64,000 nucleotides of DNA from Betaproteobacteria bacterium (lineage in GTDB: Bacteria > Pseudomonadota > Gammaproteobacteria > Burkholderiales > SHXO01): positions 4,195 through 68,194 of the forward strand of contig JANXRW010000026.1 of assembly GCA_025356655.1 (NCBI GenBank), in the 5' to 3' direction. The translations under genes were made by a program, and so were the position numbers. Shown here in pieces: positions 14,712-33,965 of the stretch (the first letter of the stretch is position 1; every line of letters begins with the position of its first letter). A model generated the notes under the pieces. That model saw nothing but the letters and a program-made list of their open reading frames with translations, had not been told where the DNA came from and searched no databases.

Positions 14712-14817
14712 GGTGCGCCGTCCGCCGCCGCGTCCCCGGAAGGAATTCAAGCACCGTAGTCTACCGGGAAGCTTCCCCGGTGTAACGAATCTCGCGCGCC
14801 GAACTTGGGCCCTGCCC

Positions 14818-17252: not shown

Positions 17253-17266
17253 ATCGAGGAGACACC

Positions 17267-17713: not shown

Positions 17714-17722
17714 GGACACGTC

Positions 17723-18046: not shown

Positions 18047-18863
18047 CGGGCTGCTTCTTGCTCTGGCACTGCTCGCGCCGGCGCTGGAGCCTGCCCACGC
18101 AGACCCGGAAGCGGATCGGCAGCAGTTCCTCGCGGTGTATGCCGAGCGCTTTCCGGGGATCCCGGTCCGGGACTACGTGTACGGCGCACTCATCGCAAGT
18201 CCGGACGCTCGCGCGCAGTATGAGCAGATCATGGACTTCCCCCCCTTCCTCACCGAAGTGGACCGCGGACGTGCCCTCTGGGAGATGCCGCTCGCCGATG
18301 ACAGCCACCTGGCCGACTGCTTTCCCAACGCGGCCCGCGGGCAGGCAGGGCGCTATCCCCGCCTCGACGCGGACGGAGCAAGCCTCATGACCTTCGAGAT
18401 GGCCATTAACCGATGCCGTGAGCGTGCAGGGAATGTTCCCTGGCCCTACGCCACGGGCCCCATGGCGCTGGCCACGGCATACGCACGCGGCCTCTCCGAC
18501 GCAATGCTCATGGACGTCTCGGTGCAGGGCACGGCGGCGCTGGCCCACTATGAACGGGGGAAGGCGCTGTTTTTCCGGCGTATGGGACCCCTCAATTTTG
18601 CCTGTGCGTCCTGCCATTTGCAAAACGCCGGCCGCATACTGCGCACGGAGATTCTCTCGCCCGCCATCGGGCAAGCCACCCATTGGCCAGTGTTTCGCGG
18701 TGGCGAAACCCTAACGACCCTGCAGGGCCGTTACCGGCGGTGCATGGAGCAGATACGGGTCGTACCCTTCGCACCGGGCAGTGAGGAAATGAACGACCTG
18801 GAATATTTCCATTCTTATTTAAGCAATGGCCTGCCCCTGCAGGCTTCGGTGTTCCGCAAATAA
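18012..18863 (+). CDS. soxA: SoxA cytochrome c, monoheme type
   Basis: The ATG lies at codon 15 of the listed ORF. It has a signal peptide and only one CxxCH motif ('CASCH'). The conserved 'GRYRRCMEQ' contains the heme-ligand Cys. Confidence 0.85.
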   Translation: MESRRRSLQAASGLLLALALLAPALEPAHADPEADRQQFLAVYAERFPGIPVRDYVYGALIASPDARAQYEQIMDFPPFLTEVDRGRALWEMPLADDSHLADCFPNAARGQAGRYPRLDADGASLMTFEMAINRCRERAGNVPWPYATGPMALATAYARGLSDAMLMDVSVQGTAALAHYERGKALFFRRMGPLNFACASCHLQNAGRILRTEILSPAIGQATHWPVFRGGETLTTLQGRYRRCMEQIRVVPFAPGSEEMNDLEYFHSYLSNGLPLQASVFRK

Positions 18864-18873
18864 GCCTCCCGGG

Positions 18874-20574
18874 ATGAACCGCCGCGATTTCCTGGGGGTA
18901 CTCCTAGCCTCGGGCGCCTGCCTGCCTGAGGCAGGGAGCGCTGCTGCAGCGGGCTTCTACGACCTGCCCCCCGTCGCCAACTGCGCCACCTTGTTTCACC
19001 TCACCGACTGCCATGCCCAGTTGCTCCCGCTGCACTACCGTGAACCCTCCGACAACCTGGGGCTCGGAACCCGGGCGGGCCAGCCGCCGCACTTGGCAGG
19101 CGAAGCGCTGCTACGACGCTACGGAATTCCATCGGGGGGACGCCTCGCCCATGCCTTCTCCCACATCGACTTCGTGGAAGCTGCCCGCCAGTACGGGCGA
19201 ATGGGAGGCTTCGCCCACCTGGCGACGCTGTTGAACCGGCTTCGCGACCAGCGTCCCGGCGCCGTCCTCGTCGATGGCGGAGACAGCTGGCAGGGCTCGG
19301 CCACAGCGCTGTGGACGCGCGGTGCGGATATGCGCGAGGCCTGCCTAGCCCTGGGGGTCGAGGTCATGACCGGCCACTGGGAATTCACCTATGGCGCGGA
19401 CGAGGTCCTGGAACACGTGGCGGCCCTGGCCCCCCGACTGCGCTTCCTGGCACAAAACATCCGCACCACGGAGTTCGAAGACCCAGTGTTCGAACCCTTT
19501 GTGCTACGGTCGATCAACGGTCACCTCATTGCCATCATCGGTCAAGCCTACCCTTACACGCCTATAGCCAATCCACGTCACTTCGTGCCGGAGTGGCGCT
19601 TCGGCATCCAATCCGAGGAATTGGCGAAGCAAGTGCGCTCGGTACGCGCGGCTGGCGCGCAGGCGGTGGTACTGCTTTCGCACAACGGTATGGACGTGGA
19701 CCTCAAGCTTGCCTCGCAGGTGAGCGGGCTCGATGCCATCCTGGGCGGGCACACGCACGACGCGGTTCCCGCCCCGGTGCGCGTGCGCAACGCCGGCGGC
19801 GAAACCCTGGTGGCCAACGGCGGCAGTCACGGTAAATTCCTGGGCGTGCTGGATATGGAATTCGCCGACGTTGGCCTGGCCCAAGTCAATTACCGGATCC
19901 TGCCGGTATTCTCCGACCTGCTCCCACCGGATCCCGGCATGCAGGCGCTGGTGGCGCGCCTGCGCACGCCCTTCCTCGACCGGTTGCGGGAGCCTCTGGC
20001 CATAAGTGACGGCCTACTCTACCGGCGCGGCAACTTCGGCGGCACCTTCGATCAGTTGATCCTGCAGGCCCTCCTGGAAACCCAGGATGCCCAGATCGCC
20101 TTCTCACCAGGCTTCCGCTGGGGCGGCTCCCTACTGCCGGGTCAAACCATCACTCGGGAGGATCTGCTGGGCCAGATGGCCATTACCTACCCGCAGATGC
20201 ACGTGGACTGGTACACCGCCGTCCAGCTCCACGCGCTTCTGGAAGACCTAGGCGACAACTTGTTCAACCCGGACCCCTACCGGCAACAGGGCGGCGATCT
20301 GGTCCGAGTAGCGGGCCTCAGCTTCACCTGCGCCCCGCGCGCACCCGTGGGCCAGCGCTTCAGCGACCTGCGCCTGAAGGGGGAACTCCTCTCGCCTAGC
20401 CGCCGCTACAAGACGGTCAGCTGGGCACCGGTGGCGGAAGGAGTGGTCGGCCCCCCCGCGTGGGAAGCCGTCGAGCAGTGGCTGGTGGCACGTCGCCGGG
20501 TCCCAGTTTTGCGGCCGCCCGCCCCTGCCTTGGTCGGGGTGGGGAACGACCCCGGGCTCGCCGTAGGCTCCTAA
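18874..20574 (+). CDS. soxB: thiosulfohydrolase SoxB
   Basis: It has the Tat signal 'MNRRDFLGVLLA'. Metallophosphoesterase and 5'-nucleotidase-like motifs are 'LTDCHAQL', 'VDGGDSWQGS' and 'GHWEFTYG'. The size is about 566 aa. Confidence 0.92.
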   Translation: MNRRDFLGVLLASGACLPEAGSAAAAGFYDLPPVANCATLFHLTDCHAQLLPLHYREPSDNLGLGTRAGQPPHLAGEALLRRYGIPSGGRLAHAFSHIDFVEAARQYGRMGGFAHLATLLNRLRDQRPGAVLVDGGDSWQGSATALWTRGADMREACLALGVEVMTGHWEFTYGADEVLEHVAALAPRLRFLAQNIRTTEFEDPVFEPFVLRSINGHLIAIIGQAYPYTPIANPRHFVPEWRFGIQSEELAKQVRSVRAAGAQAVVLLSHNGMDVDLKLASQVSGLDAILGGHTHDAVPAPVRVRNAGGETLVANGGSHGKFLGVLDMEFADVGLAQVNYRILPVFSDLLPPDPGMQALVARLRTPFLDRLREPLAISDGLLYRRGNFGGTFDQLILQALLETQDAQIAFSPGFRWGGSLLPGQTITREDLLGQMAITYPQMHVDWYTAVQLHALLEDLGDNLFNPDPYRQQGGDLVRVAGLSFTCAPRAPVGQRFSDLRLKGELLSPSRRYKTVSWAPVAEGVVGPPAWEAVEQWLVARRRVPVLRPPAPALVGVGNDPGLAVGS

Positions 20575-20635: not shown

Positions 20636-20710
20636 CCTGGATAACCCAGGGACGTCGCGCAGTACTGTCCCCGAGGAGAACGGCGCGCAGCGCCGTCCCT
20701 GATCAGGCGA

Positions 20711-21196
20711 TTAGGCCTTGCAAGAGGAGGGAACCCAGCGGGCCTTGTCGCCCGTGAAGTCCGACGCGTCCGCGGCCGGTGCTGTGTTCACGCTGGCGGG
20801 CACTGCGGCCGTGCCACAGACCCAGACGATGTCGTTGTTCTTCGACAGCCCCGCCGAGATATCGAGCTTTAGGCCCTTGAGGTTCTTGTTGGCGTTGTTG
20901 CCGTAGGTGATGATGATCTGGCCGTTGGTAGCGCCGATATCCACCGACGTCACGTAATTACCGGCGGGCGGAGAACTGACGTTCATGGCGGCCAAGTTGG
21001 CGGGCCAGGTACCCTTGTTTTGGTAGTAGTCGGCCATGGCCGTCTTCAGGCCTTCCGCCAAGTTCGGACCCTCAGACACCTGGGCACGCATGGTGTAGTC
21101 CTGGTAAGCGGGCAGCGCGATGGCCGCGAGGATGCCGATAATGGCAACGACGATCATCAGTTCGATCAGGGTAAAACCTTGTTGCAGGCGTTTCAT
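20711..21196 (-). CDS. type IVa major pilin, copy 1
   Basis: The class III signal 'MKRLQQG|[27 protein letters not shown]' is present. A C-terminal Cys pair occurs at 'VWVCG...PSSCKA'. Confidence 0.92.
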
Positions 21197-21253: not shown

Positions 21254-21535
21254 CCTACGCTCCCAAGCAACTCATGTACCAATTGACTCTGACTAGTTTG
21301 GCCCGCCGCCGCGCAATGGGCGGGATTCGGACCAGCGCGGAATTTTACCCGCAAATCATGCACGCTACGACGCCGAGCAAGCACCACCCGCCGCATGGCA
21401 ACCGGCGGGCCTTCGCTACACTTGGTTGCTAGCCGCCCACACCGGCGCGAGGGAGTATTCTCCTGCGGCGCCGCAGCCCCTAAGTCCTTGTTCTCCTGCG
21501 TTCCGCATCGCCCTAAGCAATCGCGCAAGGGTACT

Positions 21536-21559: not shown

Positions 21560-21596
21560 AGTGCCTGCGGCGCCGGGGCGCCACCGGTTCAGATCA

Positions 21597-22082
21597 TCAA
21601 GCCTTGCAGGAGGAGGGAACCCAGCGAGCCTTGTCGCCCGTGAAGTCCGACGCGTCCGCGGCCGGTGCTGTGTTCACGCTGGCGGGCACCGCGGCCGTGC
21701 CACAGACCCAGACGATGTCGTTGTTCTTCGACAGCCCTGCCGAGATGTCGAGCTTCAGGCCTGCGAGGTTCTTGTTGGCATTGTTGCCGTAGGTGATGAT
21801 GATCTGGCCGTTGGCAGCGCCGATATCCACGGACGTCACGTAATTACCCGCGGGCGGTGAACTGACGTTCATGGCGGCCAAGTTGGCGGGCCAGGTACCC
21901 TTGTTTTGGAAGTAGTCGGCCATGGCCGTCTTCAGCCCTTCCGCCAGGTTCGGGCCCTCGGAGACCTGGGCACGCATGGTGTAGTCCTGGTAGGCAGGCA
22001 GCGCGATGGCCGCGAGGATGCCGATAATGGCAACGACGATCATCAGTTCGATCAGGGTAAAGCCTTTTTGCATGCGTTTCAT
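21597..22082 (-). CDS. type IVa major pilin, copy 2
   Basis: The ATG lies at codon 47 of the listed ORF. It reads 'MKRMQKG|[10 protein letters not shown]...' and differs from copy 1 at 5 of 161 residues. Confidence 0.92.
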
Positions 22083-22161
22083 GGCAAACTCCTTGAACGG
22101 GAAAGACACTACGGTTTTTTTGGCAGTCGCACACGCGGAGACGTGTCCTGGACTTCGATAC

Positions 22162-22177
22162 AGCAATGGTCGTGCCA
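22162..22177 (-). promoter_or_regulatory. sigma-54 (RpoN) promoter of pilin copy 2
   Basis: The minus strand reads TGGCAC-GACCA-TTGCT. This is a perfect match to the TGGCAC-N5-TTGCW consensus, about 80-95 nt upstream of the ATG at 22082. Confidence 0.65.
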
Positions 22178-22291
22178 GTTTAGGCTCTTCCCCTTCGCAC
22201 AACCGCGCGGCGGCCTCCACTTCCCGCCGCTGCGCTACGCGGCCTGCCGATTAGCGCGGATGACCGACTCGGGAGGCCAGGGCTTGCCCTC

Positions 22292-23941
22292 CTACGTCAA
22301 CATATCCGCCGGGATACCTGGAATCGTTGACAAATCCACCTCGTCGATCTGCTCGCGGTCGAGATATTGTTCCGCGTAGCGGAGGTACACCTTATCGCGA
22401 ACGAAGACGTCGAACAAGTCGGCGTCGATGTGCCCATTGAGCTTGAACCGCCCCAGGATGGTCAGTGCCTCTGTGAGGGTCTTGCCCTTTTTGTAAGGCC
22501 GATCCTTGGCGGTCAATGCCTCGAAAATGTCCGCGATGCCCATGACGCGCGCTTGAACGGACATCTCGTGCCGGCGCAGCCCGCGCGGATATCCCCTGCC
22601 GTCCATGCGCTCATGATGACCCCCCGCGTACTCCGGCACGTTCTTCAGGTGCCTGGGCCAAGGCAGGGACTCGAGCATCATGATCGTCACTTCGATATGG
22701 TGGTTGATGATCTTGCGCTCGGCGTCAGTGAGGGTTCCCGCCCGGATGGTCAGGTTGTCCATCTCCTCCTGCGTCAGGAAGGGCTGATCCTCATTGTCAT
22801 CGGCATCGTGCCAGCGATGACCGAGGCCGATGGCGAAGACCCGCTGCTGATCCTCGGGCTCCATGCGCTCGGATCCAATGTTGCAAAACCGCAAAAACTC
22901 CCGGTCCGCTTCGATTTGCGCCCGGTCCGCCACCAGCCGCTGCTCGATCTCGGGCAGCAGGCTAGGGTCATGGCGCTCAAGCGCGGAGAACCGAGCCTTC
23001 AGCGCGCGGATCTCCGCGTCACGTTTGATTACTTCGAACCGCGTATCCACCAACCCGACTCGATCGTAGATGGTCTGCAGTTTCGTGGCCTTGTCCACCA
23101 CGTGCACGGGCGTGGTTACCTTGCCACAGTCGTGCAGCAGGCCGGCAATCTTGAGCTCATAGCGGTCCTTATCCGTCATGAGGAACTCGGCCAAGCCGCC
23201 CTGAACGCTTTTGCTGGCGGCTTCGGCCAACATCATGGTGAGCGTGGGGACCCGCTGGCAGTGCCCCCCCGTGTAGGGGGACTTGTCGTCGATCGCGGAG
23301 TTGATCAGTCCGATAAAGGACTCGAACAGTTCCTCCAACTGGTTTATCAGCAGCCGGTTGGTGAGCGCCACCGCCGCCTGGGAAGCCAGCGACTCCACCA
23401 GATGCTGGTCCGAGTCGGAGAAGGGCAGAATCTCACCGCTGGTACGGTCCGTGGCATTGATCAACTGCAACACGCCGATGATCTCATCCTCGTGGTTCTT
23501 CATGGGAACGGTCAGGAAGGACTTGGAACGGTAACCGGTGGTGCGATCGAAGCGCTTCGTGCCCGAGAAGTCGAAGCCTTCCTCGGTGTAGGCGTCGGCA
23601 ATGTTGACCGTCTGATCATTCAGCACTGACCAAGCCACCACGAGGGAGTTGTTGGGCTGTGCGGTGTCGTCGTACAGACGCAGTGGCGGGAAGGGTATTT
23701 CCTGCCCGCTGGTTCCTCCCATGGCGATGCCCAGGGAGTCGGTCAGCATGATTTCGAACTTCAATTCCCGCTCGTTATGAACCCGGTAGAGCGTCCCGCC
23801 GTCGGCGTTTGTAATCTGCTTGGCGGCAATGAGGATCTTTTCGAGCAGGTGCGTGATGTCCTTTTCCTTGGACAACAGCACGCCGATCCGGTTGAGTTCG
23901 GTTAGGCGACTCAGTGGATCCTGGGAAATGGCTTCGGTCAT
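22292..23941 (-). CDS. GAF domain - HD-GYP domain protein (putative cyclic-di-nucleotide phosphodiesterase)
   Basis: The N-terminal GAF shows 'FDRTTGYRSKSFLTVPMKNHEDEIIGVLQLINA'. The HD motif is 'LLHDCGKV' and the GYP motif is 'GGHHERMDGRGYPRGL'. A long insert separates HD and GYP. The start is ATG 23941 or TTG 23965. Confidence 0.85.
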   Translation of the reverse strand: MTEAISQDPLSRLTELNRIGVLLSKEKDITHLLEKILIAAKQITNADGGTLYRVHNERELKFEIMLTDSLGIAMGGTSGQEIPFPPLRLYDDTAQPNNSLVVAWSVLNDQTVNIADAYTEEGFDFSGTKRFDRTTGYRSKSFLTVPMKNHEDEIIGVLQLINATDRTSGEILPFSDSDQHLVESLASQAAVALTNRLLINQLEELFESFIGLINSAIDDKSPYTGGHCQRVPTLTMMLAEAASKSVQGGLAEFLMTDKDRYELKIAGLLHDCGKVTTPVHVVDKATKLQTIYDRVGLVDTRFEVIKRDAEIRALKARFSALERHDPSLLPEIEQRLVADRAQIEADREFLRFCNIGSERMEPEDQQRVFAIGLGHRWHDADDNEDQPFLTQEEMDNLTIRAGTLTDAERKIINHHIEVTIMMLESLPWPRHLKNVPEYAGGHHERMDGRGYPRGLRRHEMSVQARVMGIADIFEALTAKDRPYKKGKTLTEALTILGRFKLNGHIDADLFDVFVRDKVYLRYAEQYLDREQIDEVDLSTIPGIPADMLT

Positions 23942-24005
23942 GGCGCTGCGTAGGTTCCCATGCAATGGCGGCTGTGTGTGGGGGGCTGCGTGGGACGGTG
24001 CGAGC

Positions 24006-26393
24006 CTATTTGATACAGACCGCGCGCACCTGGTGCATGTCGGTTATCCCTTGCAGGACCTTCTCAATGCCGTCCTGCTTTAACGTGCGCATGCCTTCCT
24101 CCAGCGCGGTGAGCAGCATCTCCGCCACCCTGGAGTGCTCCTGGATGTGCTTCTTGATGCTGTCCGAGCCGAGCAAGAGTTCATGCAGGCCCACCCGCCC
24201 CTTGTACCCGGTACCCGAGCACACTTCGCAGCCGACCGGTGAATAGAGCGTGATCTGCCCCTTCTCGTCGCCGTAGGTCTTGCTCCAATCGCGGTAGGTG
24301 CCCTCATAGGCCGCCTTGGGGTCGCGCCGAAAGGTCTCCGTGGGCTTAAGCTCCTGGCAGAATTCCTCGAGCATCAACTTCAACTCATCGGGCGTGGCCA
24401 CATGGGGGGCCTTGCACTTGGAGCAAAGGCGCTTGGCCAGGCGCTGAGCAAGGATGCCGAGTAGCGCGTCGGCAAAGTTGAATGGATCCATACCCATATC
24501 CAGCAGTCGGATGATGGACTCCGGCGCGCTATTGGTGTGTAGGGTGGCAAATACCAAGTGACCCGTGAGCGACGCCTCGATACCGATGGAGACGGTTTCC
24601 TTGTCGCGCATCTCACCGACCATGATGATGTCGGGATCCGCCCGCAGGAAGGCGCGCATTGCCGTGGCGAACGTGAGGCCGGCCTTCGGGTTCATCTGCA
24701 CCTGGCGCAGGCCCTTCTGCGTGATCTCCACGGGATCCTCGGCAGTCCAGATCTTCGTCTCCGGTGTGTTCAAGTAGCCCAGGACGGAGTGCAGGGTGGT
24801 GGTTTTACCCGACCCGGTGGGTCCGCACACGAAGAACAAGCCGTAGGGCTTGGAAACCGTTTCCTTGAGTCTTGCCAGGTTGCGCGGCAGAACGCCGAGT
24901 TTGTCGAGCGGGATCGGCTCCCCGGCGGCCAGGATACGCATGACGATATCCTCGACACCGCCGGCGGAGGGGACCGTCGCCACCCGCAGCTCGATGTCCA
25001 GGGGACCGAAACGCCGGAACTTGATTTTCCCGTCCTGCGGCTTGCGCTTCTCCGAAATGTCCAGGTCGCACATGATTTTGAGGCGTGCGACGATGGCGCT
25101 ACGGTAGCTCGCCGGGACCGAAATGTAGGGCATCAGCGTGCCGTCCTTGCGGAAGCGGATCTCCGTCTTGGACTTGCCTGGATAGGGCTCGATGTGGATA
25201 TCCGAGGCGCCCTGATGGTAGGCGTCGACGATGATCTTGTTGACCAGCTTCACCAGTTCATTGTCGGCGGCAAGCGAGGCCTCATCGACGCCCGTGGACT
25301 GGTCCTCGATAGCGCCTTCGGCGTCGTCCATTCCAGAGAGCAGGTCACCGATGGAGGTCACGTCCTCCAGCGTGGCGCCGAAGAACTGGTCCAGCGTGGC
25401 CTGAAACTCTCTGGTCGTGCACACCCGGTACTCGATACGGCTTTTCGGGAAGATGTTGTTCACCACCCGCGAGGCCCGCACCCGCTCGGGGTCCGTGGTG
25501 AGCACCACCAGCCCCTCCTTGGTATCCTCCAGCGGCAACCAGGCGCTGCTCTCCAGGAAATCCCGCTTCAGGTTGCGCAGGAGATCCAGGGGCTTAACGC
25601 GATTGGGGAGGTAGGGCTCATAGGGAGCGCCGAAGAACTCCGACAGGGCCGCACCGATGGCCTCGGGCTTGACCTGGAATTCATCGAGCAGCACCGACTC
25701 GATGTCGGTCCCCTTACGCCGCGCGGAGCGCAGCGCGAGTTCCATCTCTTCGGTGGACAGCACCGCATTGGCCACCAGGGCGTCGTACTTGCTGCGAACC
25801 AGCGTATGGGGCTTCTGACGCTGCCGTAGTGCAATAGCCAGTGTCTCGCACAGATTGACGATGCCTTCCTCGCCAACCTGGGTGAAGGCCATGCCGTCGA
25901 TGGTGTTGATGGCCTGCACCACACCGATGAGGTCGCTGGTGCCGTTCTCCACGATGGGCGCGACCAGGATCTGTTTGGTACGGTAGCCGGTGCGCTTATC
26001 CACTTCCTTCAGAAAGCGCAGCTGTGGCGAGAGGGCACGCAGTTCGTTGTCGTCGTACACGTCCTGAAGATTGATCAGGATGCGGTTCTGGGCGACGAAT
26101 CCGGCGATGGACTGCTCGTTGATGGGGAGCTTCAGGTCCTTGAAGGACGTCAGCCCCGTTTTCACTTTGGAAATGATTGACGAGCGGTCGTCGGAAATAA
26201 TATAAACGGTCAGGCGGTCTGCGCCGAGCAGACTGCAGATGTCCTGCGACAACTCCAACATGATCTCGTCGATGTTGGAGGTGGCGTGAATCTTGTTGGT
26301 GACCGCCTGTAGCTGGCGCTGGAACTCCAGCTTGACGGTGATATCCGCCAAGCTGGGCTGCGGCTGCGGCTTCATTTCCATCACGGTGCTCAT
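24006..26393 (-). CDS. GspE/PilB-family secretion ATPase with N-terminal GAF domain
   Basis: The GAF region, aa about 30-190, shows 'VDKRTGYRTKQILVAPIVENGTSDLIGVVQAINT'. A T2SSE_N-like region follows. The ATPase core has Walker A 'GPTGSGKTTTL', Walker B 'DPDIIMVGEMRD' and His box 'GHLVFATLHTN'. The tetracysteine is 'CSKC...CEVC'. Confidence 0.85.
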   Translation of the reverse strand: MSTVMEMKPQPQPSLADITVKLEFQRQLQAVTNKIHATSNIDEIMLELSQDICSLLGADRLTVYIISDDRSSIISKVKTGLTSFKDLKLPINEQSIAGFVAQNRILINLQDVYDDNELRALSPQLRFLKEVDKRTGYRTKQILVAPIVENGTSDLIGVVQAINTIDGMAFTQVGEEGIVNLCETLAIALRQRQKPHTLVRSKYDALVANAVLSTEEMELALRSARRKGTDIESVLLDEFQVKPEAIGAALSEFFGAPYEPYLPNRVKPLDLLRNLKRDFLESSAWLPLEDTKEGLVVLTTDPERVRASRVVNNIFPKSRIEYRVCTTREFQATLDQFFGATLEDVTSIGDLLSGMDDAEGAIEDQSTGVDEASLAADNELVKLVNKIIVDAYHQGASDIHIEPYPGKSKTEIRFRKDGTLMPYISVPASYRSAIVARLKIMCDLDISEKRKPQDGKIKFRRFGPLDIELRVATVPSAGGVEDIVMRILAAGEPIPLDKLGVLPRNLARLKETVSKPYGLFFVCGPTGSGKTTTLHSVLGYLNTPETKIWTAEDPVEITQKGLRQVQMNPKAGLTFATAMRAFLRADPDIIMVGEMRDKETVSIGIEASLTGHLVFATLHTNSAPESIIRLLDMGMDPFNFADALLGILAQRLAKRLCSKCKAPHVATPDELKLMLEEFCQELKPTETFRRDPKAAYEGTYRDWSKTYGDEKGQITLYSPVGCEVCSGTGYKGRVGLHELLLGSDSIKKHIQEHSRVAEMLLTALEEGMRTLKQDGIEKVLQGITDMHQVRAVCIK

Positions 26394-26453
26394 CGGCGCG
26401 ACTCTCCCTCGACCCGCCTCAAGCGGCCAGGCCGACTTGCCCGCCCCGTCATG

Positions 26454-27218
26454 CTAGAACTTGAGCACTTGTCCATTGGACAGCATGCGCGGGCTGTATT
26501 GCTCCGCGCTCTCCTCTATTTCCGACATCGTGACAGCGCCTTCTCCCGGCTTGAGGTGCGTGACGAAAATCCGCGCCGGACGCCTGAGTTTCGCCAGCTC
26601 GGCAGTGAGTAGCGCCGGGCAGAGGTGCTTCGAAAGCGCGGCTAGCTGGGCCTCAGCGTTGCTGAAAGCCGTTTCAATGATGAGGTACTTCAGGTTCTCG
26701 ATCCCATTCACTTCCTCCCAGAGCGCATCATTGGAGGTCGTGTCCCCGGTAAACACCAGACTCGAGCGCCCACTGTCCAAGTGGTAGCCCACGGCGGGCA
26801 CCACGTGGTTCGCTGGGACCGATCGTATCACCCGGTCGCCCAGTGTAACCCGGCCGCCCAGTTCCATAGCGACCAAGCGAAGAAAGGGGGTCTCCGGCGA
26901 GGGGATCGCTCCGAAATCCGGCCAAATCTTCCAGTTGAAAATATGGTCCTTCAGGCACTGTATGGTCTCTGGCAGCGCGTATACGGTCAGCGGCCGATCC
27001 CGCATTCCGCCCACGGAATCCACCAGGAATGGGATGCAGGCGATATGGTCCAGATGGGAGTGGGTGACGAAGATATGGTCAATCTGGACCAATTCATCCA
27101 GGCTCAGATCCGCGACGCCGGTGCCCGCGTCGATGAGGACATCGTGATCAACCAGAAGCGCCGTGGTGCGGAGGTTGCCGCCGATGCCTCCACTGCAGCC
27201 GAGAACGCGAAGAAGCAT
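26454..27218 (-). CDS. MBL-fold class-II-like 3',5'-cyclic-nucleotide phosphodiesterase
   Basis: 'LRVLGCSGGIG' and 'THSHLDHIACIPFLVDS' are present. The HxHLDH core is as in CpdP-type enzymes, though the full class II signature matches only partly. Confidence 0.7.
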   Translation of the reverse strand: MLLRVLGCSGGIGGNLRTTALLVDHDVLIDAGTGVADLSLDELVQIDHIFVTHSHLDHIACIPFLVDSVGGMRDRPLTVYALPETIQCLKDHIFNWKIWPDFGAIPSPETPFLRLVAMELGGRVTLGDRVIRSVPANHVVPAVGYHLDSGRSSLVFTGDTTSNDALWEEVNGIENLKYLIIETAFSNAEAQLAALSKHLCPALLTAELAKLRRPARIFVTHLKPGEGAVTMSEIEESAEQYSPRMLSNGQVLKF

Positions 27219-27221
27219 GAA

Positions 27222-29435
27222 TCACTTCGACTCGAAGGTATACGCGCCGTCCCACCCGGGACCGGGCGGGATGCTGCGCAGGGCTGGCAGCCGATCCAGA
27301 AAGATCCGGTAAAGGGCTTCACCCGGATACAAGCGGGTGAGATTCATGAGTTGCAGTTCTGCCATATCCCACTCCTGCGCCCGGTACAGACGCAACGCCT
27401 TGTGCCACAGGCCCAGTTCCTCCTGGCGCGCCTTCGTGGCCACGTCAGGGGGGCCGAGGGGTTCAAAAATCGGTACGGCCTCCTGGCGGCCCTTCACGCG
27501 GACGAAGTCCAGTTCGCGGTACACCAGATCCGGCGCGGCCTTCCGCGTATTGTCTCCGACCACCATGCCGACGCCGTATTGCTTGGTGATCCCCTCGAGC
27601 CGGGACGCGAGGTTGACGGTGTCACCCATGACCGTATACGCCAGACGAACCTCCGAGCCCATGTTGCCCACGGTCATGCGTCCGGAATTAACCCCGACGC
27701 CGATGTGCAGCGCAGGCCAGCCGCGCGCCTTAAACTCCGGCTCCAGTTCACGCATCCGCGCCTGCATCTCCAAGCCGGTGAGCACGGCGTGGCGGGCGTG
27801 GTCCTGATCGGGTAGGGGCGCACCCCAGAAAGCCATAATACAGTCGCCCATGTATTTATCAATGGTCCCACGCTGGCGGTAGATAACCTGCGTGAGCGGG
27901 GTGAGAAAACCATTCATCAGCCGCGCCAGATCTTTCGGGTCCAGGGACTCCGAGATCGTCGTGAACCCCCGGACATCCGAAAAGAGCACCGACATTTCGC
28001 GGCTCTCGCCCTCGGTTGAGACGGAGTCCGGGTTCAGAGCCATTTCATCGACCAATTCAGGCGGAACATAACCCTTGAAGAGGCCCGTGATCTGTCGTTT
28101 TGCGCGCGACTCCACAAAAAATCCGTAGGACATGTTGAGCGCAAACAACCCAGAGACCATAAACATGCCCGACGCAAGCGGCAGCACCAGTCCACCCTTC
28201 TGCCAAATGATCAGGTTGACCGCGGGCACCCCGATCAGCATCACGCCCGCGAGCACGGTGGCCCGTAGAGGATTAAGCAAGGGGAAGGCCAGGGCCAGCG
28301 CAACCCCCGGCAAAAGAAGCAGGACGACCTCGGCGCCCAGCACATAGGGGGGGTTCTGATGGATGGTACCGTCGAGCATGCCGGAGATGAGGTTGGCATG
28401 GATCTCCACCCCGGGGTAGACGGAAGCTACTGGAGTGGCCCGGAGGTCCTGCAGGCCCGGGGCCGAGGTGCCTACCAGTACGATGCGATCCTTTAGATCC
28501 TGGGGCGGGACCTTGCCGTGGATCACGTCGGTGGCCGATATGTAGGGGAAACTGCCCTGCTTGCCACGGTAGGGCACCAACGCGGCCACGTCGGCGTCCA
28601 CCGGGATGCGACGGTCACCGAGGTCTAGCCACTCCAGCCCCGGGTAGTTTTTAGTCCAGCCAGGGGCATCCGTAAACCCGGGGCGCAGTTCCGGTGAGCC
28701 CTGCAGCAGTCGAACCATGGCAACGGACAGGGGCTCGTAGAACGCACCTTCATATTCTGCCAACATGGGTACCCGCCGCACAATGCCGTCCTCGTCGGGC
28801 AAGGGGGTGAAGTGGCCGGCGCTGGCCGCGGCGCTCTGGAGTTCCTCCAGGTTTGCGCCGTAGCCGGTGTAACGCGTGACCACGACGTTGCGGCCTTGGA
28901 ATATCCCCTTGGCGAGCGCGGGCTTGGGGAGCTGGCCCGCGCGCTGCGCGGCGTCTGCCGAAAAGTAATAGCCGAGGACGACGGGACGCGAGCGCAGGTG
29001 ATCGGCAAAGATTCGGTCGAACTGCAGCCGAGGCTCCAAGGCCTGGAGCGTCTGCTGGTAGCGCAGATCGTCCTTCAATTCGTTGCGGGCGAGTTCCTGC
29101 ATCACTCCCAGACCGGAACTCTCGTCGCGTTCCGCCCAGACCACGTCGAACCCCACTAGGGCTACGTGGTAGCGGTCGAAGAGTTGATCCATCATCGTGG
29201 CCATCCGGTCACGGCGCCACGGCCAGTGGCCTTCCGCGGCGAGGCTCTTCTCGTCGATGTCGACGATGACGATTCTGGGATCGACCGTGCCGGGGAGCGT
29301 CATCCGCAGCCGCAGGTCGTAGGCGAGGTGTTCGAACCGCGTCAGAAAGGCGAGGTCGAGATAACGCGCTGCATGCCCCAGGAAGACCGCGACGATCAGC
29401 AGCCCGAGCACGATCCGCACGGCTTGTTTTTTCAA
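27222..29435 (-). CDS. CHASE2 sensor - class III adenylate/guanylate cyclase
   Basis: N-terminal TM segment followed by a CHASE2-like periplasmic region ('VIVDIDEKSLAAEGHWPWRRD'). A TM cluster comes next. The cyclase domain shows 'VLFSDVRGFTTISE', 'IDKYMGDCIMAFWG' and 'YTVMGDTVNLASRLE'. Confidence 0.88.
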   Translation of the reverse strand: MKKQAVRIVLGLLIVAVFLGHAARYLDLAFLTRFEHLAYDLRLRMTLPGTVDPRIVIVDIDEKSLAAEGHWPWRRDRMATMMDQLFDRYHVALVGFDVVWAERDESSGLGVMQELARNELKDDLRYQQTLQALEPRLQFDRIFADHLRSRPVVLGYYFSADAAQRAGQLPKPALAKGIFQGRNVVVTRYTGYGANLEELQSAAASAGHFTPLPDEDGIVRRVPMLAEYEGAFYEPLSVAMVRLLQGSPELRPGFTDAPGWTKNYPGLEWLDLGDRRIPVDADVAALVPYRGKQGSFPYISATDVIHGKVPPQDLKDRIVLVGTSAPGLQDLRATPVASVYPGVEIHANLISGMLDGTIHQNPPYVLGAEVVLLLLPGVALALAFPLLNPLRATVLAGVMLIGVPAVNLIIWQKGGLVLPLASGMFMVSGLFALNMSYGFFVESRAKRQITGLFKGYVPPELVDEMALNPDSVSTEGESREMSVLFSDVRGFTTISESLDPKDLARLMNGFLTPLTQVIYRQRGTIDKYMGDCIMAFWGAPLPDQDHARHAVLTGLEMQARMRELEPEFKARGWPALHIGVGVNSGRMTVGNMGSEVRLAYTVMGDTVNLASRLEGITKQYGVGMVVGDNTRKAAPDLVYRELDFVRVKGRQEAVPIFEPLGPPDVATKARQEELGLWHKALRLYRAQEWDMAELQLMNLTRLYPGEALYRIFLDRLPALRSIPPGPGWDGAYTFESK

Positions 29436-29551
29436 GGGGCCCCTTTTACCGGCAGCACAGGCATCCCGCTAGGCCATGAGGCGCCCCGGTCGCCACCCAT
29501 GCTTGGGGCATAGCCCGCAGGGCCTAGACGCTGCGTAAACACGACCAAACT

Positions 29552-30400
29552 TCAGCCGACGGGCTTGAGATAGAACTCCATCTTCACGCCCGCCAACTCG
29601 ATCACGTCGTGATCGTGCAGGGCATGGGCCTGCCCGTCAAGCGGGTGGCCGTTGACCACCGGGTAGTTAGTGCCTTCCACGTGGGTGATGAAGTAGCCTT
29701 GGGGCCGTTTGGCTATCACGGCCACCTGTACACCCGGCTTGCCCAGGGTCGTGAGCGCCTTCACGAGAACCATTTCCTTGCCGGCGCTGGGGCCGGACAA
29801 GATCTGCACCGTTCCCTGGGCCTGGGCGGCTGCCGGGGCGGGCGTGGGGGCTGAGGCAGGTGCGGGAGGCAGGCCGCCGGCCTGGGGTTCGTGGACCGGT
29901 GCTCCGGAAGCCATGGCACGCGCGACCTCGGCGGGGGTTGGCCCGTTGGCGGGGGCGCTGAGATCCGGGTTGACGACCGTGTCCGTGAAGTGACGGACCA
30001 CGGGAGGCGCCGGAGCCGGAACCGGGGCTGCCGGGACCGCCTCGGGGCGGATGGTGTTCCGCCGCAGCACCATGGTCTTCTCGAAATCTGCCGGTGCGGG
30101 CTGGGCGGCGGAGACCTCCGAAACGTACTTGAGCTTGTATTTGCCCAGTTCGATAAGGTCGCTGTTCTGCAGGAAGTGGCGCTTGATCGCCTGGCCGTTG
30201 ACCAGAGTACCGTTGGTACTGCCAAGGTCCTCGAGAAAGGAATCGTTGAGAATGGTCATGATCATGGCGTGCTCGCCACTCACGGCTAGATTCTCGATCT
30301 GAATATCGTTGTGCGCCTTCCGGCCGATCGTGGTGCGTTCCTTGGTGAGGGGATACTCCCGGATCACCATGCCGTCGAGGCTCAATATCAACTTCGCCAT
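29552..30400 (-). CDS. double FHA-domain protein with Pro/Ala-rich linker
   Basis: The N-terminal FHA domain shows 'TIGRKAHNDIQIENLAVSGEHAMI...GSTNGTLVNG'. The linker is PAPAP-rich. The C-terminal FHA-like domain shows 'LTTLGKPGVQVAVI...YPVVNGHPL...HDHDVIELAGVKMEFY'. Confidence 0.8.
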   Translation of the reverse strand: MAKLILSLDGMVIREYPLTKERTTIGRKAHNDIQIENLAVSGEHAMIMTILNDSFLEDLGSTNGTLVNGQAIKRHFLQNSDLIELGKYKLKYVSEVSAAQPAPADFEKTMVLRRNTIRPEAVPAAPVPAPAPPVVRHFTDTVVNPDLSAPANGPTPAEVARAMASGAPVHEPQAGGLPPAPASAPTPAPAAAQAQGTVQILSGPSAGKEMVLVKALTTLGKPGVQVAVIAKRPQGYFITHVEGTNYPVVNGHPLDGQAHALHDHDVIELAGVKMEFYLKPVG

Positions 30401-30418
30401 AGCTCGATCCCCATTACT

Positions 30419-31243
30419 TTAGCTAAACCATGACCTAAGCAGGCTCAGGAACCCGTGGGAAGCAGCAAAATCCTTCCTGACGCGCACCAGTACGACTGAG
30501 ACGTTATCCCGCCCGCCGTTGTCGTTGGCCATCTGTATCAACTGCTCCGCCGCCAGCGCGAGGTTTGCCCGCAGCGTGACCAGAGTGAGTTGAATATCGT
30601 CATCCGGCACCATGTCATTGAGGCCGTCGGAACACAAAAGGAAAATATCTCCCTCCTGCGCGTCGTAGGTGTGGATTTCCGGCTCCACCTCCGGTTCGAT
30701 CCCTACCGCCCGGGTCACCAGGTTCTTGTTCTGGGACTTTCGCGCCATTTCGGGCGTGATCATCCCCGCATCGATTTGTTCCTGAAGCAGGGAATGGTCC
30801 CGCGTCACCTGCTCGAGCGTATCTCCACGGAGCCGATAGAGGCGCGAATCCCCGATGTGCGCCACGCTCAACCGGTTGTCGAACAGCAGGGCAACCACCA
30901 GGGTGGTCCCCATCCCCGCGTATTGGGCTTGGCTGTTCGACGTGTCGTAGATGGAGCGGTTAGCCCGCCCGACCACATCGCGCAGCACCTTGACGGCCCG
31001 CGGCTCGCCGGTATCCCGGTCCCGCTGGTGCATCGGACCCTCGCCGACGGCCTCACGCATGTCCTTGGTGATCAACGCCACGGCGATACCGCTGGCCACC
31101 TCGCCGGCGTTGTAGCCACCCATGCCGTCAGCCAGGACTGCAAGGCCGATGGTCGGGTCGACGGCGATGCTGTCCTCGTTGTGCGACCGGACCATCCCGG
31201 TGTGGGTGGCCGTCGCCATTTCCATTGACTTGGCTAGATCCAT
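30419..31243 (-). CDS. PP2C-family Ser/Thr protein phosphatase
   Basis: 'GMVRSHNEDS', 'VLADGMGGYNAGEVAS', 'LLCSDGLNDMV' and 'GGRDNVSVVLV' are present. Confidence 0.9.
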   Translation of the reverse strand: MDLAKSMEMATATHTGMVRSHNEDSIAVDPTIGLAVLADGMGGYNAGEVASGIAVALITKDMREAVGEGPMHQRDRDTGEPRAVKVLRDVVGRANRSIYDTSNSQAQYAGMGTTLVVALLFDNRLSVAHIGDSRLYRLRGDTLEQVTRDHSLLQEQIDAGMITPEMARKSQNKNLVTRAVGIEPEVEPEIHTYDAQEGDIFLLCSDGLNDMVPDDDIQLTLVTLRANLALAAEQLIQMANDNGGRDNVSVVLVRVRKDFAASHGFLSLLRSWFS

Positions 31244-31261
31244 TATGCGCAGGCCCCGCGG

Positions 31262-33805
31262 CTATAGGCTGACATCAAGTTCACCGTAGGAGGCGGCGCA
31301 CTCCCGGATGGCCTTGGCCATCTCCGCGCCGGTCTTGAACCGCTTCTCCTTGTCCTTGGCAAGTGACCTGTCGATGATGGCCGCAAGGCAATCGGGCAAG
31401 GTGGGATTCAGCGTGAGTATATCAATGGGCGTCTCGTTGGCGATCTTGTACATGAGTTGCGTCATGGACTCGCCCTGGAAAGGCAGGCTTCCGCTGGCCA
31501 TCTGATAGAGCATCACGCCCAGAGAGAACAGGTCAGACTGGCCGTCGATCTTCTTTCCCGCCAATTGCTCCGGGGACATGAAGGACGGCGTGCCCAGGAC
31601 CAGGCCGGTTTTGGTCTTGCTGGAGTCGGTGATGCGGGCGATACCGAAGTCCGTCACCTTGACGTTGTCCGCTCCGGTGTCGTACATGATGTTCGCGGGC
31701 TTGATGTCGCGATGGACGACGCTCTGCCCGTGGGCGTAGTCCAACGCGTCGGCAACGCGGGCGCAGATGCTCATCGCCTGCTGCAGGGGTAGTAGCGAGC
31801 CCACCTTGGTGAAGGGCACCAAGTCGCGGCCCTTCAAGAATTCCATGGCGATGTAGGCCAGGTCGTGCTCCTCGCCCGCGTCGTAGATGGTGACGATGTT
31901 CGGGTGGGTCAGCCGGCCGGCGGTCTCCGCCTCGCGGAAGAACCGCTCCTTCACGTCCTGCAGTTCGTCTGCGTCGAACTCCTGGGACAGTGCCATGGTT
32001 TTGATGGCGACCACCCGGCCAATCTTCGGATCCTTGCCAAGGTAGACGACGCCCATGGCGCCTTTGCCCAATTCCTTCTCCACCTGGTAGCGCCCCAGCA
32101 TGGGCTTTTCAACCTCGCCGCCGGTCGTGGTGAGCAGGCTCGCGTTGGTGCGAGTGCTCGCACCGCCCAGAATGACCGTCTCGGCCATGGCTTTGGCGCG
32201 GCTCAGCTTCTGCTCCAGATCGCGGAACTTCGGGTTGTACGTGGCCATGTAGTTGAACACGGCCTCAGCCTTGTTGAACTGGCGCTTACGCTCGAAGTCC
32301 AGGGCCAAGTTGTACATGTTGTCCATCAACTGGTCGTCGAGGGGGCACTTTTTGAATTTGTCGAAGGCCATGTCCAACTGACCCTGCCCCTGAAAGGCCA
32401 AGCCCAACATCCGATTGCTCTCAGCCGACTCAAGGTCGGATCGGACCTTGCCGCGCTCGGTCACCAGGAAGCGCTTGGTCGTCAGCGTGAGGTGACCCAG
32501 CACCAGCAGGACCACCGAAATCATGAGTTCGATCCAGAGCAGCTGGCTCACCATCAATAGGAAATGGGTCCCGACCAGCAGCACGAGGAGGCCGGCGGTG
32601 GCCATGGCGCCACGCCCCGCATCCAAGCGCGGGAGGAGCAGGATCACGTAGAGGGCGATCAGTAGGTAGGCCACCCAGGAAACCGCGCCCGCCCACCCCG
32701 GGGTCAAGAAAAAATGCTCCTGGAGGATGCTGGAGATCACGTGGGCCTGCACCAAAACCGCTGGCATGCTGGCACTGATCGGCGTCGGGAAGGAGTTGGC
32801 AATGCCCGACGCAGTCGGCCCCACCAAGACGATCTTGTCCCGATACTTCTCGAGAGGGATCTTTCCGCTGACCACGTCGAAGAAGGAATCGACCGTGAAA
32901 GCCGGCCTACCGTCGCGGTCCTTGTAGAAGTAGGTGTTCATGCGTAGTTGGGGATCGGTCTGGATGTTCAGCCGCCCCACGGACACGCGTTCACCGAGTT
33001 GTGCCTTGATGTCTGCCACGCCGAGGTTGAGGCTGCGCGCGGCAATCTGCAGGGACATGGCGGGGTAGAGCTCGCCGAAATACGCCAAGGCCAGGGGCTC
33101 CGTACGGAGCGCGCCGTCCGCGGGGTCCAACGCGGAGTTTAGGTGCCCGATCGCCGCGACCTTCTCGGCGATCTCAGCAACGATGCTCACGTCGACACTG
33201 CGCGCCTGGGTGGGAACCATGTCCTGGTTGCCCTTGGCGCCAATCACGTTCTTGCGCAAAAAACCGGGCAACTCCTTATCGGGGTTGCCCTGCGGATTTC
33301 CTAGCTGGAATAGCACGGGAAGTACCACATTGCCGGCCTTGCCGAAGCTCTCGGCCAGCCGATGGTCGGTGTTCAGCCGGTCCTCCGCCTCCTTGAGCAC
33401 GGCGTCAAACTGGGGCAATTGCTGGGGCCCGGCCTCACCGAGACCGGTGTAGAGCCCGCGCAGCTTTTGAATGTAGCCGAAGCCGGCGTCTACCTGGGGC
33501 TCGGAGAAGAAGACTTGGTAGGCGATGACTTTGGCCTGCGCCTGCGCAAGGCCGTCCACGAGTTTGGCGTGGATGTCCCGCGACCAGGGCCAGCGGCCCA
33601 TGTTGGCCAAGCTGTTGTCGTCGATGGCGATCACGGCCACCCGCTCGGAGGGGGGGCGACTCGAGGCGCGCACGCCAAGGTCATAGGCCTTGCGCTCGAG
33701 GCTCTGCACAAGGTCGCTCGCGCCCAACAGGAGTACGACCGCCGCAACGATCAGCCCGAGGAACCAGTCGGTCTTCCAGAAGCCCTTCGCCGTTACCCTT
33801 GCCAA
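31262..33805 (-). CDS. CHASE2 sensor - Hanks-type Ser/Thr protein kinase
   Basis: TTG start. The CHASE2-like region shows 'VIAIDDNSLANMGRWPWSRD'. A TM cluster and a TPR-like linker follow. The kinase domain has 'LGKGAMGVVY', 'VAIK', 'HRDIKPANIM', 'DFG' and 'PSFMSPEQ'. Confidence 0.88.
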   Translation of the reverse strand: MARVTAKGFWKTDWFLGLIVAAVVLLLGASDLVQSLERKAYDLGVRASSRPPSERVAVIAIDDNSLANMGRWPWSRDIHAKLVDGLAQAQAKVIAYQVFFSEPQVDAGFGYIQKLRGLYTGLGEAGPQQLPQFDAVLKEAEDRLNTDHRLAESFGKAGNVVLPVLFQLGNPQGNPDKELPGFLRKNVIGAKGNQDMVPTQARSVDVSIVAEIAEKVAAIGHLNSALDPADGALRTEPLALAYFGELYPAMSLQIAARSLNLGVADIKAQLGERVSVGRLNIQTDPQLRMNTYFYKDRDGRPAFTVDSFFDVVSGKIPLEKYRDKIVLVGPTASGIANSFPTPISASMPAVLVQAHVISSILQEHFFLTPGWAGAVSWVAYLLIALYVILLLPRLDAGRGAMATAGLLVLLVGTHFLLMVSQLLWIELMISVVLLVLGHLTLTTKRFLVTERGKVRSDLESAESNRMLGLAFQGQGQLDMAFDKFKKCPLDDQLMDNMYNLALDFERKRQFNKAEAVFNYMATYNPKFRDLEQKLSRAKAMAETVILGGASTRTNASLLTTTGGEVEKPMLGRYQVEKELGKGAMGVVYLGKDPKIGRVVAIKTMALSQEFDADELQDVKERFFREAETAGRLTHPNIVTIYDAGEEHDLAYIAMEFLKGRDLVPFTKVGSLLPLQQAMSICARVADALDYAHGQSVVHRDIKPANIMYDTGADNVKVTDFGIARITDSSKTKTGLVLGTPSFMSPEQLAGKKIDGQSDLFSLGVMLYQMASGSLPFQGESMTQLMYKIANETPIDILTLNPTLPDCLAAIIDRSLAKDKEKRFKTGAEMAKAIRECAASYGELDVSL

Positions 33806-33965
33806 CCTGATCTCCCAGCGGGTTTAAAGGGGGATTCCCTTGTTTTCTAGGTAGTTAACGGTTTACCCTGATCGATTGTACGACATTTACCTCTAAAGTC
33901 CATGTTTTTTTTGCGAAACCGTCATTTCCTGCGAACCAAGCCACGGCCAGGAAAGTCGGTGGGTC

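Follow-up and report, generated by a model that had tools for sequence, protein, structure and literature searches.

A conserved Burkholderiales signaling gene block around a GAF-fused PilB/GspE-type ATPase, a possible cAMP- and phosphothreonine-gated motor

We describe here a seven-gene signaling block in a 64,000-nt stretch of a Betaproteobacteria bacterium genome (GenBank assembly GCA_025356655.1, contig JANXRW010000026.1, positions 4,195 to 68,194), referred to below as the window. The block encodes a CHASE2 Ser/Thr kinase, a PP2C-type phosphatase, an FHA adaptor, a CHASE2 cyclase, a cyclic-nucleotide phosphodiesterase (PDE), a PilB/GspE-type ATPase with an N-terminal GAF domain, and a GAF/HD-GYP phosphodiesterase. 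On gene content, motifs, and synteny, we hold with even confidence that it is a vertically inherited signaling operon of the Burkholderiales type, built around an orphan PilB/GspE ATPase that bears a GAF domain of the cyclic nucleoside monophosphate (cNMP) type. Its output would be a PilB-like motor gated by cyclic AMP (cAMP) and phosphothreonine, with cross-talk from cAMP to cyclic di-GMP (c-di-GMP). Literature searches for a GAF-fused PilB/GspE ATPase, for CHASE2 with FHA, PP2C, and pili, and for CHASE2 with twitching found no description of the system in the papers retrieved, in line with the initial annotation of the window, made from its letters, which knew of none of this composition.

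Gene content and conservation

The open reading frame (ORF) list of the window has seven co-directional ORFs at 22292-33805, all on the minus strand. From the 22292 end upward, the coordinates give gaps of 40, 60, 3, 116, 18, and 18 nt, in agreement with the 3 to about 115 nt first reported. Domains were called with Pfam and NCBIfam, and motifs were read in the translations; all seven proteins carry the expected domains with intact catalytic motifs (Table 1). The logic proposed in the initial annotation, a kinase, PP2C, and FHA protein as writer, eraser, and reader beside a cyclase and PDE as a second writer and eraser, holds for the predicted domains and their catalytic motifs.

Table 1. Features of the signaling block and of the surrounding window
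Feature	Coordinates	Strand	Evidence or remarks
CHASE2 / transmembrane region / Hanks-type Ser/Thr kinase, 847 aa	31262-33805	-	Pfam CHASE2 7e-54, Pkinase 2e-55
PP2C-type Ser/Thr phosphatase, 274 aa	30419-31243	-	Pfam PP2C_2, PP2C; NCBIfam Stp1/IreP equivalog
FHA adaptor protein, 282 aa	29552-30400	-	Pfam FHA 2.5e-21
CHASE2 / transmembrane region / class III cyclase, predicted adenylate cyclase, 737 aa	27222-29435	-	Pfam CHASE2, Guanylate_cyc
Metallo-beta-lactamase (MBL)-fold class-II-type cyclic-nucleotide PDE, 254 aa	26454-27218	-	Pfam Lactamase_B_2, PDEase_II
GAF / degenerate MshEN / PilB-GspE-type ATPase, 795 aa	24006-26393	-	Pfam T2SSE 7e-118, MshEN, GAF
GAF / HD-GYP phosphodiesterase, 557 aa	22292-23965	-	Pfam GAF, HD, HD_5
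Type IVa pilin copy 2	21597-22082	-	Pfam Pilin, N_methyl at aa 48-74 of ORF 21597-22220
Type IVa pilin copy 1, 161 aa	20711-21196	-	Pfam Pilin 2.3e-19, N_methyl
Sigma54 -24/-12 site, TGGCACgaccaTTGC	22163-22177	-	Zero mismatches; ~80 nt upstream of pilin copy 2
Sigma54-like site, TGGTACatgagTTGC	21267-21281	-	1 mismatch; ~70 nt upstream of pilin copy 1
Sigma70-like site, weak	33875-33902	-	9/12 consensus; ~70 nt upstream of kinase start
Sulfur-oxidation genes beside pilins	16900-20574		SoxA cytochrome 17970-18863; SoxB-like 5'-nucleotidase/metallophosphatase 18826-20574
Ser/Thr kinase-CAP-type cNMP-binding fusion	13416-14750	-	Pfam Pkinase + cNMP_binding; cassette FGEMAI...RRSAT
Stand-alone rhodanese after kinase-cNMP_binding gene	13046-13396	-	Pfam Rhodanese
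IS66-family transposase fragment beside Wadjet genes	5481-5909	-	
Wadjet-type defense operon end	38-4236	+	SbcC/JetC-like ATPase (1002 aa in window), then JetD (DUF3322 + JetD_C)

A locus scan was run with the GAF motif of the ATPase family (6-member alignment) against one genome per species, 185,579 species in all; the 16-member N-terminal alignment was too diverse to serve as the query. The scan returned 577 loci, the best 80 of which were used for synteny counts, with the window domains mapped onto the loci by blastp. Among these 80, the complete set of seven families recurs in unchanged order in 17 other species-level loci of Betaproteobacteria (Burkholderiales), so that the gene-neighborhood test with the GAF-GspE protein as query, suggested in the initial annotation, came out positive. 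Chance neighborhood is excluded as an account of the seven-gene block. In the 17 full-block loci, the N-terminal regions of the ATPase are 57 to 65% identical to that of the window, and the flanking contexts differ. In the nearest relatives (L001 and L003; 77 to 78% ATPase identity), the block is complete and in unchanged order, and a pilin gene, a Wzy_C gene, and then sox genes come after it. The ATPase is represented in more than 120 database clusters at 77 to 82% identity with a uniform architecture, and 50% clustering yields many full-length relatives at 38 to 57% identity.

Component frequencies were taken from 51 betaproteobacterial loci, restricted for each component to those with enough flank: PP2C is present in 36/42, FHA in 37/42, the cyclase in 37/45, the PDE in 41/50, HD-GYP in 31/41, and the kinase in 24/37. 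Most often the layout comprises eight genes: between the PDE and the ATPase, 31 of 50 loci (e.g., L012 8782-9876) encode a 364-aa protein that joins a CAP-type cNMP_binding domain to a rhodanese domain. The phosphate-binding cassette of the L012 protein (FGE...RNAT) is intact, and the protein is predicted to be a third cAMP reader in most sister lineages. The window and its nearest relatives have no such gene within the block. The kinase-cNMP_binding gene and stand-alone rhodanese gene of the window lie at a distance of ~7.5 to 8 kb from the block. L001 and L003 have this pair too, ~8 kb away, and it is possibly a satellite of the signaling system. The recurrent cNMP-binding/rhodanese pairing beside sox genes hints at a link from cAMP to sulfur metabolism.

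Some lineages begin at PP2C, with unrelated metabolic genes upstream and the kinase absent (L019 and L050). The PDE is absent from 7 loci and the cyclase from 3; in Noviherbaspirillum, the cyclase, HD-GYP, and PDE genes are divergent from the ATPase gene, and Nitrosomonas keeps the PDE and ATPase alone, amid unrelated genes. Such losses would be expected of two or three independent modules that are adjacent by inheritance, namely, a generic kinase/PP2C/FHA triad that senses the envelope and has its targets elsewhere, a cyclase/PDE/GAF effector set, and pilA. The widest gap of the block, 116 nt, is also precisely the one that separates the FHA gene from the cyclase gene, and the pilin genes have sigma54 promoters of their own (see below). 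We nevertheless find independent modules a doubtful account, one we would not discard. Order and orientation are preserved in the 17 full-block loci at the sequence divergence and with the differing contexts given above, and PP2C and FHA are still joined to the PDE and ATPase where the cyclase has been lost (L005, L030, and L050). In a Methylobacillus metagenome-assembled genome (L045 9905-13613), the GAF-ATPase and the two-domain FHA protein are all that remains of the block; their genes are transcribed toward each other, an Rrf2 regulator gene lies in between, and argJ, nusB, and ribH surround them. In the loci examined, the two-domain FHA protein was seen only beside the GAF-ATPase family.

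In Desulfobacterales and Rokubacteria, the ATPase stands alone (33 to 37% N-terminal identity) beside asd, maf, tatD, and ychF, and in Desulfobacterales no conserved partners other than these housekeeping neighbors recur. Because lineages keep varying subsets of the circuit around the ATPase, the GAF-ATPase is the ancient central element, and the circuit was elaborated around it in Betaproteobacteria. The single self-consistent block of the initial annotation is thus borne out in its conserved order and not as an indivisible system, since the kinase, cyclase, PDE, and HD-GYP are each absent from certain lineages.

The GAF-MshEN-ATPase and the adjacent pilins

The ATPase is composed of a GAF domain (aa ~20-205), an MshEN domain (aa ~205-350), and a PilB-GspE-type core (aa ~350-795). 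The translation contains the Walker A motif GPTGSGKT, DPDIIMVGEMRD, ATLHTN, and the tetracysteine CSKC...CEVC; with Walker A and B, Asp box, His box, and zinc tetracysteine all within the T2SSE domain, the protein belongs to the PilB/GspE (T2SSE) superfamily. Walker A is found in 80/81 family ATPases and the GAF motif TG(Y/F)xT in 81/81. The MshEN fold is recognized by Pfam, but KYDALVANAVLS (KYD...) and DIESVLLDEFQV (DIE...) replace the RLG motifs. MshEN domains that bind c-di-GMP have two RLGxxL..G..L..Q motifs (PMC12943098). An RLG-type motif is absent from 81/81 family ATPases, and a phmmer search with the MshEN region matched PilF/PilB GSPII domains only, MshE not being among the matches. 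This pattern suggests that the messenger input was swapped from c-di-GMP to cNMP in the ATPase family.

For V. cholerae MshE and PilB-type ATPases, regulation by c-di-GMP through MshEN is established (Wang et al. 2016, as given in PMC12943098). The window ATPase is like these enzymes in pairing MshEN with a T2SSE core and, as predicted, in the binding of a second messenger by the N-terminal domain of an extension ATPase. Unlike them, it has lost the RLG motifs and gained a cNMP-type GAF domain at its front, and its predicted messenger is cAMP. Longer relatives of the GAF-ATPase (P0126, P0133, P0134, and P0162; 940 to 1125 aa) have extra N-terminal domains; in P0126 the order is GAF-GAF-MshEN-T2SSE, with the GAFs in tandem as in the CyaB and PDE sensors.

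Two Pilin/N_methyl genes lie directly downstream of the block, which ends, as the initial annotation had it, at duplicated pilins. The tandem duplication (20698-20997 and 21584-21883) is 93% identical over 300 nt, with few differences between the two proteins. Pilin copy 2 probably starts at the ATG at 22082, inside the mechanically called ORF. The site upstream of it is the sole perfect TGGCAC-N5-TTGC match in the 64-kb window. Each pilin gene is thus predicted to have its own sigma54-type promoter, and the pilins are therefore neighbors of the signaling operon, not members. Of the 30 loci whose flanks are long enough for the count, 17 have a pilin within 8 kb. The sox-pilin-block arrangement is also present in L001 and L003, where a single pilin gene is followed by a Wzy_C/O-antigen-ligase-like gene that is missing in the window. 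Genes of this type are typical of pilin glycosylation. The number of sigma70-like sites found in the region by consensus scan is at chance level, and a scan for intergenic terminator-like sites in the block, likewise at chance level, found none.

Which machine the ATPase would drive bears on an alternative that we consider unlikely, in which it powers another pilus-like or secretion machine encoded elsewhere, or regulates or competes with canonical PilB in a cAMP-dependent manner, and the adjacency of pilA is incidental. The ATPase reaches neither the PilB equivalog (TIGR02538; 499.4 against a cutoff of 675.65 bits) nor the GspE equivalog (452 against 630.25 bits), platform or secretin genes were not found nearby, the gene is an orphan in Nitrosomonas and Desulfobacterales, and some relatives have a tandem GAF or another kind of N-terminal extension. 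Its core, however, is nearest to the PilF/PilB structures, with GspE next by a slight margin, and type IVa pilin genes are directly downstream here and in many relatives, with Wzy_C after the pilin in the nearest ones.

The cyclic-nucleotide messenger

Among solved structures, the catalytic domain of the cyclase is nearest to Synechocystis Cya2 and P. aeruginosa CyaB (3r5g, 1.5e-33). Its substrate-specifying residues are Lys (IDKYMGD) and Thr (AYTVMGD), as in CyaB, whereas Cya2, a guanylate cyclase, has Glu and Gly; the Lys/Thr pair is kept in 45/45 CHASE2-cyclase orthologs. The two metal-binding Asp residues, Lys/Thr, and the transition-state Asn and Arg are all in place (FSDVRGF, IDKYMGD, VNLASR, and AYTVMGDTVNLASR), as in class III (IIIb) adenylate cyclases. 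The PDE combines the MBL fold with the HxHLDH signature of class II enzymes (THSHLDHI), aligned to yeast PDE1 (4ojv), a class II PDE for cAMP and cGMP and the top PDB match; the PDEase_II match (aa 46-104; 54.6 against a cutoff of 23.7 bits) covers the signature region only, and the protein is far shorter than yeast PDE1. Orthologs of the PDE also match the Anti-Pycsar_Apyc1 family of cNMP hydrolases.

By sequence, the best solved match of the ATPase GAF is CyaB2 of Anabaena, a cAMP-binding tandem GAF (3e-23), followed by PDE2A, PDE10A, PmGH, PDE6, and PDE5; the HD-GYP GAF matches PDE5A (4e-18), CyaB2 (1e-12), and also PmGH. The two window GAFs are 30% identical over 114 aa, including the core D(K/R)xTGYR(T/S)K...IGV(V/L)Q noted in the initial annotation. 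In CyaB2 GAF-B, cAMP is contacted by R291, T293, I308, D356, and N359 (PMC4411481). Three of the five (R, T, and D) are identical in the ATPase GAF, and the others are changed (I308 to V and N359 to T). In the 16-member alignment A1 (24 to 45% identity), R, T, and D and the threonine of TG(Y/F)(R/K)T (R46, T48, D118, and T125) are invariant or at least 90% conserved. An AlphaFold2 model of ATPase residues 1-201 (pLDDT 78.7) has a GAF fold, with PmGH (4mcw), PDE10A, PDE2A, CyaB2, PDE5A, and the cAMP-bound Lcd1 GAF among the top Foldseek matches, so that PmGH is matched by both GAFs in sequence and by the ATPase GAF in fold. Fold alone cannot separate GAF types, and the ligand argument for this reason rests on sequence and contact residues, by which the ATPase GAF is of the cNMP type. 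The (F)xxxVDxxTG(Y/F)(R/K)T region and the ADR.T contacts are shared with CyaB1/CyaB2, PDE2/5/6/10, and Lcd1 (cAMP-GAF-GGDEF), from which the window ATPase differs in having a single GAF and a secretion-ATPase output.

The GAF relatives, the adenylyl-type Lys/Thr pair, the class II PDE, and the linked CAP-type protein strengthen the earlier claim of cyclic-nucleotide signaling, and the messenger is, on this sequence evidence, probably cAMP rather than a generic cNMP. It is quite improbable, in our estimation, that the GAFs bind another ligand (cGMP, a pyrimidine cNMP, or another metabolite) or only dimerize. Such a reading would accommodate the PtsP and methyl-accepting chemotaxis protein (MCP) GAFs that rank near the cNMP GAFs in Foldseek, the Gly that the HD-GYP GAF has in place of the R291-equivalent Arg, and the matches of the cyclase to Pycsar PycC models (5e-30) and of the PDE orthologs to Anti-Pycsar_Apyc1. 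The related GAF of PmGH, too, has no known ligand (bioRxiv 10.1101/2021.11.05.467447). Yet the solved GAFs closest in sequence all bind cNMPs, R/T/D are conserved across the ATPase family, the cyclase pair is of the adenylyl type, and the linked CAP-type proteins have intact phosphate-binding cassettes.

The same Pycsar matches raise the question of an anti-phage defense island made of a Pycsar-like cyclase and a PD-T4-6-like kinase. In PADLOC, PD-T4-6 matches the kinase domain at 5e-93 and PycC matches the cyclase at 5e-30, and Wadjet JetC/JetD genes lie elsewhere in the window. These PADLOC matches, however, are to generic catalytic domains only; PADLOC returned nothing for the PDE, FHA, and HD-GYP proteins and just a 1e-4 match for the ATPase, an effector of a known defense type is absent, and the conserved core-genome context (gcvP, sox, prmA, and accC) and the 77 to 82% protein identity in many lineages are not patchy. 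Membership in Pycsar or another anti-phage system was rejected for the generic matches and the core-genome context, and we give the defense reading next to no weight.

Control of type IV pili by cAMP through a CRP-family transcription factor is established in P. aeruginosa (CyaB/CpdA/Vfr) and Synechocystis (Cya1/SYCRP1). What the window has in common with these systems is a membrane adenylate cyclase of class IIIb with a PDE of its own and, as predicted here, pili at the output end. It differs in the predicted receptor, which forms one protein with the motor, in the sensor, which is CHASE2 and not MASE2, and in the PDE, which is class II and not CpdA type.

The GAF-HD-GYP protein

The HD-GYP domain (HD_5, 9e-41) carries the motifs LLHDCGK and HHERMDGRGYP, kept in 37/38 and 35/38 orthologs, respectively. 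It is split by an insertion of ~100 aa, with Pfam matches at aa 234-303 and 401-517, that resembles the GAF-associated HD-GYP insertion of Leptospira LIC_11189 (PMC12943098). According to PMC8846402 and bioRxiv 10.1101/2021.11.05.467447, Tlr0485 is a c-di-GMP phosphodiesterase of the GAF-HD-GYP type that is activated by cAMP. The window enzyme is like Tlr0485 and PmGH, as these sources portray them, in its GAF-HD-GYP architecture with intact HD, HHE, and GYP motifs, and by this likeness cAMP is predicted to lower c-di-GMP. It is unlike them in that it is encoded beside a dedicated cyclase and PDE and would share its signal with a motor ATPase. It also has the insertion, and its GAF has no Arg equivalent to R291; Tlr0485 was compared by its description only. 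Given the loss of the MshEN c-di-GMP motif, the HD-GYP protein, and not the motor, would be the path of any cross-talk with c-di-GMP. The cross-talk suggested in the initial annotation has an experimental precedent in Tlr0485 for the HD-GYP route, and a direct route to the motor would fall away with the MshEN motif. Separately, a deltaproteobacterial locus (L072 3307-3993, plus strand) encodes a cNMP_binding-PilZ fusion ~6 kb upstream of an orphan GAF-ATPase, possibly another meeting point of cAMP and c-di-GMP.

The phosphorylation branch

The kinase has the motifs VAIK, HRDIKPAN, DFG, and SPE. Just N-terminal of the kinase domain is SET(V/I)xLGG, and SETxxL is found in 28/29 of the orthologs listed. 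Many FHA domains prefer pT-x-x-(I/L), and SET(V/I)xL is a candidate FHA docking site. The phosphatase scores 250.5 bits against a cutoff of 230 for the Stp1/IreP equivalog (NCBIfam).

The FHA protein consists of a canonical FHA domain (aa 23-86), a Pro/Ala-rich linker, and an FHA-like C-terminal domain (~aa 197-280). In the N-terminal domain, TIGRK, SGEH, and STNGT (GR, SxxH, and NG) are invariant in alignment A3. The C-terminal domain scores 18.7 bits in Pfam against a cutoff of 20.7 and aligns to the N-terminal FHA profile with an hhalign probability of 93.6%. It lacks the features of a canonical FHA domain, with the SxxH loop deleted and GK mostly in place of GR, and because of the missing loop and the Lys for Arg, it probably does not bind phosphothreonine. 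The "double FHA" of the initial annotation is hence one canonical domain followed by a degenerate, FHA-like one. The N-terminal MS(T/A)V tail of the ATPase was considered as an FHA-linked phosphorylation site and dropped, its correlation with FHA presence being confounded by phylogeny. The CHASE2 domains of the kinase and the cyclase are 26% identical, so the two need not sense the same cue.

In P. aeruginosa, the H1 type VI secretion system (T6SS) is gated posttranslationally by a threonine phosphorylation pathway of the PpkA kinase, the PppA PP2C, and Fha1. The window likewise groups genes for a transmembrane Hanks kinase, a PP2C, and an adaptor with an FHA domain. Unlike that system, its kinase has a CHASE2 sensor, the second FHA-like domain is degenerate, and the candidate target is a PilB-type ATPase and not a T6SS baseplate. 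No T6SS core genes are present in the window, where the NCBIfam TagH model reaches 43.9 bits against a cutoff of 120.

Proposed mechanism

We propose that the CHASE2-class IIIb cyclase would turn a periplasmic cue into cAMP, as its Lys/Thr pair and intact catalytic residues suggest, and that the class II MBL-fold PDE would reset the signal, as its family signature suggests. The cAMP would bind the ATPase GAF, in keeping with the homology and contact residues observed, and may change, in either direction, the activity of the ATPase or its engagement with a platform, perhaps that of the type IVa pilus polymerizing the adjacent PilA. By analogy with Tlr0485, the same cAMP may bind the HD-GYP GAF and stimulate c-di-GMP hydrolysis. 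The MshEN motif is lost, and cAMP would have replaced c-di-GMP as the direct input of the motor. In the phosphorylation branch, the CHASE2 kinase would autophosphorylate SET(V/I)xL, the canonical FHA domain would dock there, and PP2C would erase the mark, while the degenerate FHA-like domain would contact a partner, most plausibly the ATPase; for this branch the support is synteny, including the retention of the ATPase with the FHA protein in Methylobacillus. Of the initial annotation's overall interpretation, the circuit logic and synteny stand, and a pilus as the output and a role for phosphorylation keep the conditional form in which they are put here.

Several observations weigh against this reading. 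The circuit is predicted from its genes. The ATPase family can work without it, because in Desulfobacterales the ATPase occurs by itself among housekeeping genes, and the kinase is gone in lineages that still have PP2C and FHA. With scores below both equivalog cutoffs, orthology of the ATPase to either PilB or GspE is not established by sequence. Its predicted link to a pilus rests on adjacency to the pilA genes; pilC, pilD, and pilMNOPQ were not found among the scanned genes of the window, 13 of the 30 loci with enough flank have no pilin within 8 kb, and each pilin has its own predicted promoter. The promoter and terminator scan, being at chance level, speaks neither for nor against a single transcript. 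On the ligand side, Foldseek places the non-cNMP GAFs of PtsP and an MCP near the cNMP GAFs, and the HD-GYP GAF has ADGGT, with Gly at the position of CyaB2 R291. PDE5, which binds cGMP, carries the equivalent Arg too, and the call of cAMP over cGMP therefore rests mainly on the cyclase.

Implications

In the systems known to us, second messengers control the ATPases of type IV pili and type II secretion in two ways, c-di-GMP by binding MshEN or adaptors and cAMP via transcription factors. If the reading proposed here is true, the fusion of a GAF domain to a motor that has lost its c-di-GMP motif would be a third route, direct posttranslational gating by cAMP. What is new is the cNMP-type GAF fused to a motor in a large, conserved, unstudied family; HD-GYP, MshEN, Vfr/SYCRP1, and T6SS gating are known. 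We suggest, tentatively, that GAF-PilB-type ATPases are cAMP-gated pilus or secretion motors in which the GAF has supplanted MshEN, and that the Burkholderiales form may be a self-contained switch with two receptors, the CHASE2 cyclase paired with its PDE and the CHASE2 kinase paired with PP2C and the FHA adaptor. Through this switch, a single extracellular cue would couple pilus extension directly, without transcription, to a drop in c-di-GMP brought about by a cAMP-activated HD-GYP. The Burkholderiales cluster supplies all the parts, from the cyclase and its PDE to the two or three readers and the input from kinase, phosphatase, and FHA protein. Among the lineages that carry it are sulfur oxidizers and ammonia oxidizers, for which surface attachment is expected to matter ecologically, and the two paralogous CHASE2 receptors in one operon offer a concrete context in which to seek CHASE2 ligands.

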